Of a DNA stretch of 64,000 nucleotides, positions 3,113 through 5,988 are shown in pieces. Position numbers and translations under genes: made by a program. The notes under the pieces are model-generated. The model ran no database searches and was not told where the DNA came from. It saw only the letters and a program-made list of their open reading frames with translations. The stretch comes from Hyalangium sp. (GTDB lineage: Bacteria > Myxococcota > Myxococcia > Myxococcales > Myxococcaceae), in the NCBI RefSeq assembly GCF_045802625.1, contig NZ_JBJMQP010000096.1, positions 37,810 through 101,809 on the forward strand, written 5' to 3'. Position 1 is the first letter of the stretch. Each line of letters opens with the position of its first letter.

Positions 3113-3892
3113 ATGAGTCTCTTCTTCAAGCTGGCCTTCGCCGTCGCCGCCATCCTGTGCTTCTCCATCGCGCTGGTGGTCCTCCTCAACTTCGCCAAGT
3201 TCGAAAGGACGCTCATCGAGCTGCAGCAGTCCCGGCTGCGCGTGCTCGCGCTGGATGCAAAGGCTTCCACCGAGGCTGCCATCGACCTCGGCCTCGCCCT
3301 GCCGTCCGTCCGGGATGCCCAGCGGATCATCGCCAGGGTCTCGGACATGGATCCGGACATCCGGGGCGTCGTCATCCTCGATCGCCAAGGCATCGTGCTG
3401 TTCCAGAGCGGGCTGCATGCCACCACCCATCTCCCAGGCTCGGCGCGCGGGCGGGCGGCGTGGTTCGAAGAGGCGGCGCGGGCCCGTGGGGGCGCCTGGA
3501 GCCGGACGGACTCCAAGGCCCTGGTGGTGGGCGCGCCCATCCTCAACCCGTTCAGCCAGCCCGTGGGGCTCGTCTTGATCGCCTACGATCGCCATGCGCT
3601 CGATGCCCGGGCTCGCGAGTTCCTGCACGACTTCGCTCGGCAGGCCATGTGGCCGTTCATCGGCGGCTTCGCGCTCGTCTGCGCGCTGATGCTGGTGCTG
3701 CTCAAGCCCATCGGCCGCCGGCTTCAGGAGCTGGAGGTGGCGCTGCGGCGCACCGGGGAGCCCACCGGGCCCGAGGGGGCGCAGGCACCGCACGGGGCCG
3801 TGGAGGACGAGGGGCTGCACGTGTTCCAGCTGCGTTACCACGAGGCCTCCCAGGCGCTGGTCCAGGCCGAACAGTCTCTGGAGGGCTCGTGA
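3113..3892 (+). CDS. Two-TM membrane protein with a periplasmic sensor-like domain (no output domain)
   Basis: GGAGG lies before ATG 3113. Topology is TM (MSLFFKLAFAVAAILCFSIALVVLLNF), a periplasmic region of about 170 aa and a second TM (MWPFIGGFALVCALMLVLL). The periplasmic domain is paralogous to the N-terminal domain of the next gene. The TGA stop overlaps the next gene's GTG start (GTGA). Confidence 0.6.
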   Translation: MSLFFKLAFAVAAILCFSIALVVLLNFAKFERTLIELQQSRLRVLALDAKASTEAAIDLGLALPSVRDAQRIIARVSDMDPDIRGVVILDRQGIVLFQSGLHATTHLPGSARGRAAWFEEAARARGGAWSRTDSKALVVGAPILNPFSQPVGLVLIAYDRHALDARAREFLHDFARQAMWPFIGGFALVCALMLVLLKPIGRRLQELEVALRRTGEPTGPEGAQAPHGAVEDEGLHVFQLRYHEASQALVQAEQSLEGS

Positions 3893-5988
3893 GCGCGCCC
3901 AGCGGCAGTCCTCTGGCACGAGGCCGCATCTGGCAGGTGAGCTTGCTCGCGTCCTTGCTCGTGGTGGCGACGCTGATCATCGCCTCGTTCCAGTCCTCGC
4001 GCCTCTTCGATGTGGAGCTCCGCCCCGATCTGCGAGCCAAGGCGGAGACGCTGGCGGAGACCGTGGCCCTGCAGTTCCGCCGGACCGCGGAGCTGGGCAT
4101 CCCCCTGTCCAAGCTGCGCGAGGTGGATGCCTTCCTCGATGACACGGCGGCCGGTCACGAGGAGATCCGCTACATCGGCTTCGCGTCGCCGGAGGGCCGC
4201 CTGCTGTTCGCCTCCAGCGGGTTGAAGCAGCAGCCTCCGGACTTCTTCGAGCGGCTGCGGGTGGCCCACTCGGCGGAGCAGGAGCGGGGCCTGGCGCGCG
4301 TCGAGGGCGTACTGGACCTCGCCGTCCCTGTCCTGTCCGAGGGGCGCCTCATCGGCCAGCTCTACGTGGGGATCGACGCCACGTACGTCGAGCAGCGCCT
4401 CCAGGAGATCCACACGGACATCGTCATCACCCTGTTCGTCACGGCGCTGGTCACCATCGAGGTGCTGATGGCGCTGATGGGGCTGCTCGTCGGCCGGCCG
4501 CTGAGGCTGCTCTACCGGCTGTTCGCGCTGGGGAGCGCTGGAGACTTCACCCGGCAGGTCCGGACGCGGCTGCACGACGAGGCCACACGGGCACTGGCCG
4601 CGGCGGGGCGGCTGGTGCGGGCCCTGAACTTCCGTCATGCCGCATTGCTCGAGCGCGTTGAGCAGCACCGGCTCACCGGCAAGCTCGGCCAGGCCGCGGA
4701 CGAGGCGCTCACGGCGCTCGGGCAGCGGTTCCACTTCGGCAAGCCGGATGCGCCCGTGGGGCTGGAGGAGCCCGAGACGGGCGATCTGCGGCTCCCGCTC
4801 TTCGTCTATCTGTTCGGCGCCGAGCTGTCGCGCTCGTTCTGGCCGCTCTACGTCAAGCGGCTCTACCAGCCCATCCCTTTCCTCTCCGAGAGCTTCATCG
4901 TGGCGCTGCCCATGTCGCTGTGGGTCACCGCCATGGTGCTGGCCACGCCGCTCGCCGGACGGCTCCTGCGCAAACAGGGCAGCCGCACGGCCATGCTGGT
5001 GGGAATGGTGCCGAGCTTCATCGGCCTGGGGATGACGGGGCTGTCCTCGAGCCTGCTCGAGCTCTTCTTCTGGCGCATCGTCACCGCCAGCGGCTACGGC
5101 GTGGTGACCACGACCGCGCTCATCCATGTGGCGCGGACCGCGAAGGAGGGACACAGCGCCCGGAGCATGGGCGTCTTCGTGGGGGCCTCGACGGCCGCCA
5201 GCGTCTGCGGCACGGCCATTGGCGGCATCCTCGCGGATCGCATTGGCTACGGGGAGACCTTCCTGGTGGCGGCGGGGTTGGTCTGTCTCGCCATGGCGTT
5301 GGTGTGGCTGGTGACGCCGGACACGAGGCCGCGAACGGCGGAAGAGGCTCCGAAGCTCTCGGGGCTCGCCTACCTCGGCATCTTCCTGCGAGGCCGCGTC
5401 CTGCTCTTCATTCTGCTGGCGGCCATGCCCGTGCGCCTGGTGCTGGCGGGCTTCCTCTTCTACCTGACGCCGCTGCGCCTGCACGAGCTGGGGTTTGGTG
5501 AGGCTCCCATCGGACGGATCATGATGGGCTACTTCATCTCCACGGTGGTCGCCACGCCGGTGGCGTCCTTGCTGGCGGATCGGTACGGCTGGCATCGGGC
5601 GCTGATGGTGGTGGGCGGGCTGGTCTCCGGGCTGGGCGTGCTGCTGTTCTCCGCGAGCACGGGCACCTGGCTGTTGCTCACCGCCGTGGTGCTGGTGGGT
5701 CTTGGCCAGTCCCTGGCGAGCACGCCGCTGTTGGCCTCGGTGCCCCCGCTCTTCGCCGAGGAGTGTGCCCGCTTCGGGCTCGACGCGATGCTGTCCGTGT
5801 TCCGCATCATCGAGCGCGTGGGCAGCCTCGTCGGTCCCCTGGTCGCCGCGGCCCTGCTGGGTGTCAGTGGGTTCACGGCGAGCACCAACGCCATCGGCAT
5901 TGGCGGGCTCGTGCTCACCGTCGGACTGGCTGCCTACTTCTTCTTCCGTTCCTCTCCAACGTCCTACCCGTCAGCGAGAACTCCATGA
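3889..5988 (+). CDS. Periplasmic sensor domain + HAMP-like linker fused to a 12-TM MFS transporter
   Basis: GTG start overlaps the upstream stop. Order is N-terminal TM, a periplasmic domain of about 150 aa, a second TM, an amphipathic linker (GRPLRLLYRLFALGSAGDFTRQVR) and then an MFS-like 12-TM region (LPMSLWVTAMVLATPLAGRLLRKQGSRTAML...GYGVVTTTALIHV...). The 3157..5988 track ORF carries a spurious 5' extension. Confidence 0.65.
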   Translation: MSAPSGSPLARGRIWQVSLLASLLVVATLIIASFQSSRLFDVELRPDLRAKAETLAETVALQFRRTAELGIPLSKLREVDAFLDDTAAGHEEIRYIGFASPEGRLLFASSGLKQQPPDFFERLRVAHSAEQERGLARVEGVLDLAVPVLSEGRLIGQLYVGIDATYVEQRLQEIHTDIVITLFVTALVTIEVLMALMGLLVGRPLRLLYRLFALGSAGDFTRQVRTRLHDEATRALAAAGRLVRALNFRHAALLERVEQHRLTGKLGQAADEALTALGQRFHFGKPDAPVGLEEPETGDLRLPLFVYLFGAELSRSFWPLYVKRLYQPIPFLSESFIVALPMSLWVTAMVLATPLAGRLLRKQGSRTAMLVGMVPSFIGLGMTGLSSSLLELFFWRIVTASGYGVVTTTALIHVARTAKEGHSARSMGVFVGASTAASVCGTAIGGILADRIGYGETFLVAAGLVCLAMALVWLVTPDTRPRTAEEAPKLSGLAYLGIFLRGRVLLFILLAAMPVRLVLAGFLFYLTPLRLHELGFGEAPIGRIMMGYFISTVVATPVASLLADRYGWHRALMVVGGLVSGLGVLLFSASTGTWLLLTAVVLVGLGQSLASTPLLASVPPLFAEECARFGLDAMLSVFRIIERVGSLVGPLVAAALLGVSGFTASTNAIGIGGLVLTVGLAAYFFFRSSPTSYPSARTP

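Follow-up and report, generated by a model that had tools for sequence, protein, structure and literature searches.

Can an extracytoplasmic sensor module have a membrane transporter as its output? Kinases, cyclases, phosphatases and chemoreceptors are known to receive their input from Cache-HAMP modules, and the question is raised by one gene in a 64,000-nucleotide stretch of the 9.45-Mb genome of Hyalangium sp. (contig NZ_JBJMQP010000096.1, positions 37,810 to 101,809; this stretch is here called the window, and positions are counted from its first letter). A sequence-only reading of the window had proposed that the gene at 3889..5988 encodes a single polypeptide in which a transmembrane (TM) helix, a periplasmic domain, a second TM helix and a linker precede the 12 TM helices of a Major Facilitator Superfamily (MFS) transporter. 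Hydropathy, the positive-inside rule and an AlphaFold model bear out this order. The fusion protein is moreover one of three parts of a widespread unit, the other two being a two-TM partner protein and a solute-binding protein of family PF04392.

The fusion protein

The gene and its parts are as follows.

3889..5988, + strand: whole gene of the Cache-HAMP-MFS fusion, 699 amino acids (aa) (open reading frame, Pfam, AlphaFold model, Foldseek, fold search)
3928..3984, + strand: sensor TM1, residues 14-32 (hydropathy)
3985..4416, + strand: periplasmic single Cache (PDC) domain, residues 33-176 (Pfam, model, fold search)
4417..4488, + strand: sensor TM2, residues 177-200 (hydropathy, conservation)
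4489..4638, + strand: HAMP-like domain, residues 201-250, made of a helix, a 14-residue connector and a helix (model, profile, conservation)
4639..4776, + strand: helical linker into the transporter, residues 251-296, where variability is highest (model, conservation)
4777..5946, + strand: 12-TM MFS domain, residues 297-686 (Pfam, model, Foldseek)

The frame is open from GTG at 3889 to TGA at 5988 (699 codons, no internal stop), with GGAGGG just 5' of the start. Its closest homologues, in Cystobacter and Corallococcus, are full-length orthologues with 70-79% identity, which excludes a frameshift or a chance join. Hydropathy finds 13 TM windows (14-32, 178-196 and eleven within 337-686), with a 145-residue loop between the two sensor TMs and a 100-residue soluble stretch ahead of the transporter; the first MFS helix (297-324), missed by hydropathy, is supplied by the AlphaFold model of the full fusion (118-row alignment; predicted local distance difference test (pLDDT) 91.9, predicted template-modelling score (pTM) 0.89), which brings the count to 2 + 12 TM helices. 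Lysines and arginines together number 4, 3, 5, 2 and 3 in the short MFS loops of one side against 1, 1, 2, 0 and 0 in the alternate loops. Because these loops obey the positive-inside rule, the MFS N-terminus and the linker 197-296 should be cytoplasmic and the loop 33-177 outside, so the N-terminal domain is not placed in the cytoplasm; and the C-terminal half is a transporter according to both Pfam MFS_1 and the MFS folds found by Foldseek.

Modelled alone, residues 1-294 (pLDDT 88.3, pTM 0.66; the higher pTM of the whole fusion is a hint of packing between sensor and MFS, on which we do not rely as pTM depends on length) form a helix at 8-68 and then five strands at 93-163. A fold search with this model returned the extracellular domain of WalK as the best match (Z 10.9, root mean square deviation 2.6, 125 residues aligned), with KinD (Z 10.4), TlpB (Z 10.1), LuxQ (Z 9.9 and 9.5) and CitA (Z 8.6) among further matches. 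An integrative full-length WalK model matches the sensor half over 281 columns (E 1.5e-9), and the WalK and NblS models of NCBIfam are matched weakly, through the input half only. With its long N-terminal helix and one PAS-like alpha/beta domain between two TMs, the loop is, as modelled, a Cache (PDC) fold of no named Pfam family; 24 of 70 family members match sCache_3_2 at E <= 0.001. A four-helix-bundle sensor was rejected on the five-stranded sheet of the model; none appears among the 50 fold-search rows listed either, which alone would not exclude one.

Among the 118 aligned sequences, D177 of sensor TM2 is kept in 113 and the intramembrane E191 in 116. Beyond the membrane lie the hallmarks of a HAMP domain, by the letters that we presume to define one (P, G-x-phi, DExG): P204 is kept in 103 sequences, G218 in 102, D230 in 80 and E231 in 94. 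In the model one helix runs to 216 and the next starts at 231; G218-D-F and D230-E231 are present, and position 233, a glycine in 78 of the 118, is a threonine in the fusion. PF00672 has no match in the fusion and matches 20 of 70 family members (best E 2.1e-10), while the family profile matches the HAMP structures of Af1503 (E 0.0025-0.007). Within the host genome that profile also matches four chemoreceptor-type proteins and one GGDEF protein (their output domains were read by eye), over the N-terminal half only (E 2.6e-22 to 1.2e-13). These matches, together with WalK as the best structural match, agree with the earlier proposal of a receptor input module in the N-terminal half and an MFS where the output would be. 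Pfam finds no HisKA/HATPase, MCP or GGDEF output domain in the fusion.

The MFS half matches Pfam MFS_1 at E 1.1e-33 (117.1 bits against a gathering cut-off of 33.4). Its best Foldseek match is VMAT2 (E 3.6e-12, TM-score 0.83 by target), followed by VAChT, NorA and MdfA, and its identity to these four structures is 17-20%. All 25 NCBIfam matches listed for the fusion stay below their cut-offs (TIGR00880: 66.2 against 131 bits); the nearest profiles and folds are of efflux or antiporter type, with the profile scores all below cut-off. Charged residues are widely kept: in the same 118 sequences R301 occurs 116 times, E312 92, R396 111, D450 94, R543 112, D564 108, R639 114, E642 112 and R643 111 times. 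Going by what we take to be the letter pattern of motif A, the copy between TM2 and TM3 keeps G357, G364 and R366 and has R361 at the aspartate position, and the second copy, that between TM8 and TM9, keeps D564-R565. The position of motif A and the antiporter proline motif of TM5 follow the available part of PMC8154325.

The three-part unit and its distribution

The other genes of the operon are these.

1785..3095, + strand: porin O/P-family outer membrane protein, 436 aa, first gene of the operon (Pfam)
3113..3892, + strand: two-TM Cache-type protein, 259 aa, paralogue of the sensor module and putative second subunit (profile comparison, gene linkage)
5985..7082, + strand: Ddl-like ATP-grasp ligase, VtsA-like, 365 aa, accessory (Pfam, BLAST)
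7079..8125, + strand: periplasmic solute-binding protein, PF04392, 348 aa, third core part; its start overlaps the stop of the ligase gene (Pfam, gene linkage)

The order is porin, partner, fusion, Ddl-like ligase and binding protein, with stop/start overlaps among the last four, including that of the partner's stop codon with the start codon of the fusion. How constant this company is was judged from genome loci (the best 80 of 288 confirmed in a scan of GTDB genomes) and metagenome loci (the best 80 of 171); as these are the best-scoring part of those found, the counts lean to close relatives.

According to the sequence-only reading, the gene just upstream of the fusion encodes the same sensor domain as a separate two-TM protein. 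It does encode a two-TM paralogue, a module of the order TM-Cache-TM-helical, but not the same sequence: BLASTP gives E 0.70, and the kinship emerges from HHalign (probability 99.1, E 1.2e-18, 237 columns, 13% identity). Against the PDB, the partner profile finds only weak coiled-coil and KinD matches (E 0.006-0.9). The protein thus looks like a divergent partner subunit, not a copy. As a separate gene it is found in 79 of the 80 genome loci, and in the remaining one it is joined to the transporter; it is likewise present or fused in all 61 metagenome loci having 1 kb upstream, the remaining 19 of 80 being too short. Of the 16 homologues that exceed 780 aa, 15 have partner and fusion in a single chain; between the split and the fused state, 8 changes are needed on a tree of 108 rows. 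Since Cache-HAMP receptors act as dimers and the two parts have repeatedly been fused or split, partner and fusion probably make up a heterodimeric sensor on one MFS output.

A binding protein, too, is nearly always present. PF04392 proteins occur in 77 of the 80 genome loci (the 3 misses are at contig edges), at most 2.6 kb downstream in 73 of them, and in 60 of the 61 metagenome loci long enough to judge. No cognate ATP-binding cassette (ABC) ATPase was found with them: the ATPase pattern was met in just 4 of the 80 loci, at least 2.3 kb off and never adjacent, and the 45 commonest neighbour clusters contain no ABC ATPase or permease, with which an unlinked ABC partner remains compatible. 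The unit therefore has three parts: fusion, partner and PF04392 binding protein. A complex prediction of sensor half, partner and binding protein, in which the binding protein was scored, gave a median of 0.45 against 0.00 and 0.00 for unrelated partners and 0.44 for a control with the two-TM protein replaced, and is counted neither way. The closest solved relatives of the binding protein are 6HNI, 3LKV and 3LFT, which hold Tyr, Phe and Trp according to the available text of PMC6816091. The part of PMC4655355 at hand describes YfiR, structurally like 3LFT and 3LKV, as binding the PAS-HAMP-GGDEF protein YfiN at its periplasmic PAS domain.

The family is large. With the sensor half as query, 473 representatives at 50% clustering were found at E <= 0.001 and 160 at 1e-10. 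The MFS half is present in 125 of the best 150 of these matches, and of the 120 measuring at least 600 aa, 116 have it; 16 short matches appear, by eye, truncated or frameshifted. A second word-index search, using the alignment, returned the same 29 proteins. The best 80 genome loci come chiefly from Alpha- and Gammaproteobacteria; Myxococcota, Spirochaetota and a few other groups supply the rest. In the host's order a match at E <= 1e-40 occurs in 10 of 201 genomes, and in none of the four other genomes of its genus. In an MFS-domain tree the myxobacterial proteins cluster with Zavarzinia, an alphaproteobacterium (Shimodaira-Hasegawa-like approximate likelihood ratio test (SH-aLRT) 100); this quick tree, made without a clade test, suggests that the myxobacterial fusion was acquired by gene transfer. 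All our trees are quick ones with long-branch warnings; they leave out locus L013 (broken frame) and are rooted on two MFS proteins of the host genome. Covariation (358 rows, effective number 234, 664 columns) was discarded: pairs between sensor and MFS were inseparable from noise, many impossible pairs joined Cache to cytoplasm, and plausible pairs within domains were few. Databases name the proteins of this family just 'MFS transporter'. The architecture, which the sequence-only reading called rarely annotated, is in that sense hidden, but it is common rather than rare.

VtsABCD, type VI secretion and the neighbouring genes

A second, divergent family member starts at the very edge of the window, on the opposite strand.

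1..1636 (5' part in the window; the gene goes on to G000:C75:37049), - strand: 798-aa VtsB-like protein with two sensor modules and an MFS, without a HAMP-sized linker (profile, BLAST, tree)
C75:35857-37056 (outside the window), - strand: VtsC-like binding protein, after the 798-aa gene (BLAST)

Database records, found by exact look-up, name in Aliivibrio wodanis a VtsA ligase, a VtsB MFS protein and the binding proteins VtsC and VtsD, and in Vibrio anguillarum a VtsC. In both species VtsABCD belongs to type VI secretion clusters. The homologous Vibrio system is said to have borne its name since 2009. VtsB, in which two sensor-like modules are seen, matches our family profile (E 1.6e-73). The 798-aa protein is 23.7% identical to it over 726 aa (E 4e-58), and the binding protein next to that gene is 29% identical to VtsC (E 8e-45). 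A VtsB clade of 10 rows (SH-aLRT 97) includes the 798-aa protein and excludes the fusion. By profile, BLAST and tree, then, the locus holds both classes back to back, the fusion operon and a divergent VtsB-like gene; a paralogue of the VtsB class also accompanies the main operon in Cystobacter fuscus and in two loci of Corallococcus (L001, L003, L004). This minus-strand gene, the binding protein at 7079-8125 and the link to the Vibrio VtsABCD system had all escaped the sequence-only reading.

Of the systems that have a name, VtsABCD is the nearest to the fusion operon. The likeness lies in the combination of an ATP-grasp ligase, a sensor-fused MFS and a PF04392 binding protein, all present in the fusion operon. 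The fusion itself belongs to the sister clade: its BLAST similarity to VtsB extends over the MFS only (24%, E 1.6e-18), and VtsB has two modules and no HAMP, where the fusion has one Cache domain with HAMP and a separate partner. The window's ligase (5985-7082) is 24.5% identical to VtsA (E 1.8e-13) and misses the NCBIfam Ddl cut-off (70.7 against 243 bits), as does VtsA of V. anguillarum (100.8 against 243). BLAST finds no match to VtsD (SBP_bac_3) among the six locus proteins.

In the available portion of PMC8861277, vtsA-D are reported to affect stress response and hcp expression. Section 3.2 of PMC11790442, in the text available, applies vtsA1-vtsD1 to the cap, sheath and ring genes of the V. 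anguillarum type VI secretion system (T6SS), which makes the name ambiguous in print. In the family of Photobacterium rosenbergii, the Vibrionaceae, 70 of 251 genomes match (71 matches). The 20 matches examined comprise 8 split forms, 6 fused forms, 5 with two modules and no HAMP-sized linker, the class to which the Vts names apply, and 1 outlier, and 19 of these 20 loci adjoin VgrG or TssC genes. The exception, L142 (G416:C2:485700-505699), combines a VtsB-class gene with a binding protein and with an ATP-grasp gene that occupies two frames, away from any T6SS match. The T6SS-linked loci are L123-L141 (Vibrionaceae), L042, L049, L056, L061, L068, L070, L072, L074, L075, L077, L079 and L080. 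In or beside T6SS clusters the module thus takes three architectural forms, and the T6SS context requires 5 changes on the tree, which points to repeated recruitment or loss. In the host, no T6SS match stands on the contig of the window among the best 8 listed per profile, and VgrG and TssC matches lie on other contigs; the Hcp and STAS profiles have no match in the host genome, which is not counted as absence.

The neighbours elsewhere are regulators. A Cache-HAMP-SpoIIE (PP2C) phosphatase is nearby in 44 of the 80 genome loci and T6SS genes in 13, with both in 4 and neither in 27 (this locus included; some contigs are short). STAS genes occur in 28 of the 80 and an anti-sigma kinase in 13; this last is the cluster count, used in place of an RsbW pattern count of 30 that probably includes histidine kinases. 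Beside the binding protein there is a slot for a variable enzyme: formyltransferase-like in 20 of 80 loci, ATP-grasp ligase in 6, or PanB-like or GNAT proteins (loci with formyltransferase-like, PanB-like or GNAT proteins: L014, L015, L022, L027, L028, L030 and others; L033, L046; L008, L018, L023). These enzymes possibly make different small ligands. The porin is found only in the 5 myxobacterial loci of the 80.

Further genes of the window complete the picture. A second ATP-grasp protein (18956-20020, - strand) matches the ligase profile at E 1.4e-21. After the operon comes a gene of the Indigoidine_A family (8283-9197, + strand), presumably a pseudouridine-phosphate glycosidase; as it is not among the genes listed after the operon in the Cystobacter and Corallococcus loci, it is probably outside the module. 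It is followed by the gene of a 2305-aa protein (9224-16141, + strand) with helical-repeat-like sequence and lower third-position GC (0.79), whose C-terminus resembles what we take to be a CHAT protease domain. A promoter scan found 0 against 0.4 expected, and for terminators the figures were 4 against 2.3; neither result is informative.

A possible mechanism, its alternatives and known systems

The term 'sensor-gated', introduced by the sequence-only reading, goes beyond architecture and gene linkage, and how the module might work is weighed here. Tentatively, and at a little under an even chance, we read it as a signal-controlled transporter: a ligand-loaded binding protein would dock on the Cache pair and gate MFS export through HAMP. 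Fusion and partner would most likely pair into a heterodimeric Cache-HAMP sensor with a single MFS output. The binding protein, ligand-loaded or empty (the ligand probably being an amino acid or a derivative), could plausibly dock on the Cache pair, as LuxP docks on LuxQ (the complex is named in the title of PDB 2HJ9) and YfiR on YfiN; with similar plausibility the change would travel from TM2 through HAMP to MFS TM1 and set the transport activity. Much less securely, the MFS might export a small metabolite, in this operon perhaps the product of the ATP-grasp ligase, and ligase, exporter, binding protein and sensor might make up a feedback or cell-density loop that elsewhere feeds the PP2C partner switch or the T6SS. 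We favour this reading because the HAMP hallmarks, E191 and the MFS charges are conserved, the nearest relatives are antiporter-like and the neighbours are regulators.

A number of points weigh against it. The fusion misses the Pfam Cache cut-offs (sCache_3_2: 26.6 against 28.4 bits; dCache_1 is also below) and does not reach the Pfam HAMP cut-off. The aspartate of motif A is weak (D in 41 and E in 25 of the 118, R361 in the fusion), and the antiporter proline of TM5 is present in 32 of the 118, with T442 in the fusion (the S646 region aside). Proteins of the VtsB class carry a pair of sensor modules but lack a HAMP-sized linker, so a HAMP relay must be dispensable for the family as a whole. 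Second copies next to the PP2C gene retain an intact sensor module with a decayed or halved MFS, and the four scanned have no Pfam MFS match (decayed copies: L006:16080-17618, L020:13943-15403, L031:13789-15783, L038:14004-15470, L056:13069-15141; also L021). To our knowledge, the binding-protein-dependent secondary transporters known so far are importers, and a fold says nothing on the direction of transport. Finally, a signal that is both made and exported cannot be general, since no enzyme is constant: the ligase is found in 6 of 80 loci, the formyltransferase-like protein in 20, and others in fewer.

One alternative is an importer. Here the Cache pair would be a docking platform, and the MFS would receive an amino-acid-like solute brought by the binding protein, as happens in TRAP and TTT systems, but with another fold. 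The binding protein is nearly always adjacent with no cognate ABC ATPase found, its relatives take aromatic amino acids for uptake, and the VtsB class does without a HAMP-sized linker. Second binding proteins occur in some loci (TAXI/NMT1-like in 13 of 100 assessed; SBP_bac_3 in Vibrio), and a porin heads the present operon, though it is confined to 5 of 80 loci. For a passive platform, however, the HAMP hallmarks conserved in the main class would be superfluous, and among the 45 commonest neighbour clusters it is PP2C, STAS, anti-sigma and T6SS genes that recur, not catabolic genes for a single solute. We consider an importer unlikely.

The decayed copies bear on another alternative, in which the MFS would sense a cytoplasmic or membrane ligand, or be inert. 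The signal would then start at the MFS and pass by way of HAMP to the Cache pair and the binding protein, or laterally to the Cache-HAMP-PP2C phosphatase or T6SS regulators, the protein being a scaffold or a transceptor, a role of which UhpC is an example. The PP2C-adjacent copies (L006, L020, L021, L031, L038 and others) would fit it, as would the degenerate motif A, the regulatory neighbours and the 4 of 120 full-length matches whose C-terminal halves are hydrophobic and decayed, without MFS similarity. In the main copy, however, no part is better conserved than the MFS (with mean modal fractions of 0.53 and 0.47, compared with 0.38 in Cache), and 27 of 80 loci, among them the present one with no T6SS match listed on its contig, are without PP2C or T6SS genes nearby. 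We rate this alternative as unlikely. That the protein is an ordinary MFS exporter of a neighbouring enzyme's product, its sensor module a vestige of chance fusion, is highly improbable: Cache and HAMP scores under the curated cut-offs and the plain MFS annotation would agree with it, but the sensor half is 76% identical to its Cystobacter orthologue against 81% for the MFS half, 155 of the 161 MFS matches in the loci leave room for a sensor half (a contig end or a broken frame truncates the remaining 6), and partner and binding protein are kept across phyla.

It seems to us an even call whether the module is a new class, a one-component receptor with a transporter output, in which a binding protein on a heterodimeric Cache-HAMP sensor switches or feeds the MFS of the same complex. 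If so, it would be the first extracytoplasmic-sensor-gated MFS that we find described, or else an MFS-based addition to ABC, TRAP and TTT as modes of binding-protein-dependent transport. An outside signal would be turned directly into solute flux, bypassing gene expression. The module would be present in hundreds of proteobacterial lineages, with several recruitments to T6SS and PP2C partner-switch loci, hidden behind the label 'MFS transporter' as in the 70 of 251 Vibrionaceae genomes; it would explain how VtsABC act and offer a testable anatomy for these genes, accessory members of Vibrio type VI clusters with no explanation so far. The natural single-chain forms (about 850-1000 aa) should ease reconstitution and structure work. 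In the literature covered, which excludes most subscription papers, no description of a Cache-HAMP-MFS fusion or of the three-part unit was found.

Among known systems, sensor kinases, chemoreceptors and diguanylate cyclases share the input half of the fusion, which is not a member of any of them as it is without their outputs. Similar in design are YfiR-YfiN and LuxP-LuxQ, which likewise have a TM-Cache/PAS-TM-HAMP input (the LuxQ domain is among our fold matches, at Z 9.9 and 9.5) and a periplasmic partner, YfiR being structurally related to 3LFT and 3LKV in the part of PMC4655355 at hand. Their output is a cyclase or a kinase, whereas that of the fusion is an MFS; moreover, two paralogues with a single output would here pair as a heterodimeric sensor, and as binding protein the unit has a complete, two-lobed member of PF04392. 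DHA1-type and SLC18 antiporters (MdfA, NorA, VMAT) provide the best fold matches (TM-score 0.8 by target), and the DHA1 type shares an acidic residue in TM1 and an arginine in TM4 with the fusion family, where both are conserved; we take these residues of the fusion to be the counterparts of those in MdfA. The fusion differs from these antiporters in its 17-20% identity, and from them and the DHA2 drug:H+ antiporters in reaching no NCBIfam cut-off and in its degenerate motif A and TM5 proline. TRAP and TTT systems consist of a binding protein, a secondary transporter and a small extra membrane subunit, with no ATPase, and so does the present unit; they have DctM or TctA folds with DctP, TAXI or TctC proteins, whereas here the fold is that of an MFS, the extra subunit is of Cache type and the binding protein is PF04392. 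Regulatory domains on a 12-TM MFS are also on record: the available text of PMC10710835 describes MFS proteins fused to CBS, CNBD, PAS and UspA domains, in most cases C-terminally, and proposes allosteric control. The domain of the present fusion is instead N-terminal, membrane-crossing and extracytoplasmic, and the word 'cache' is absent from that text.

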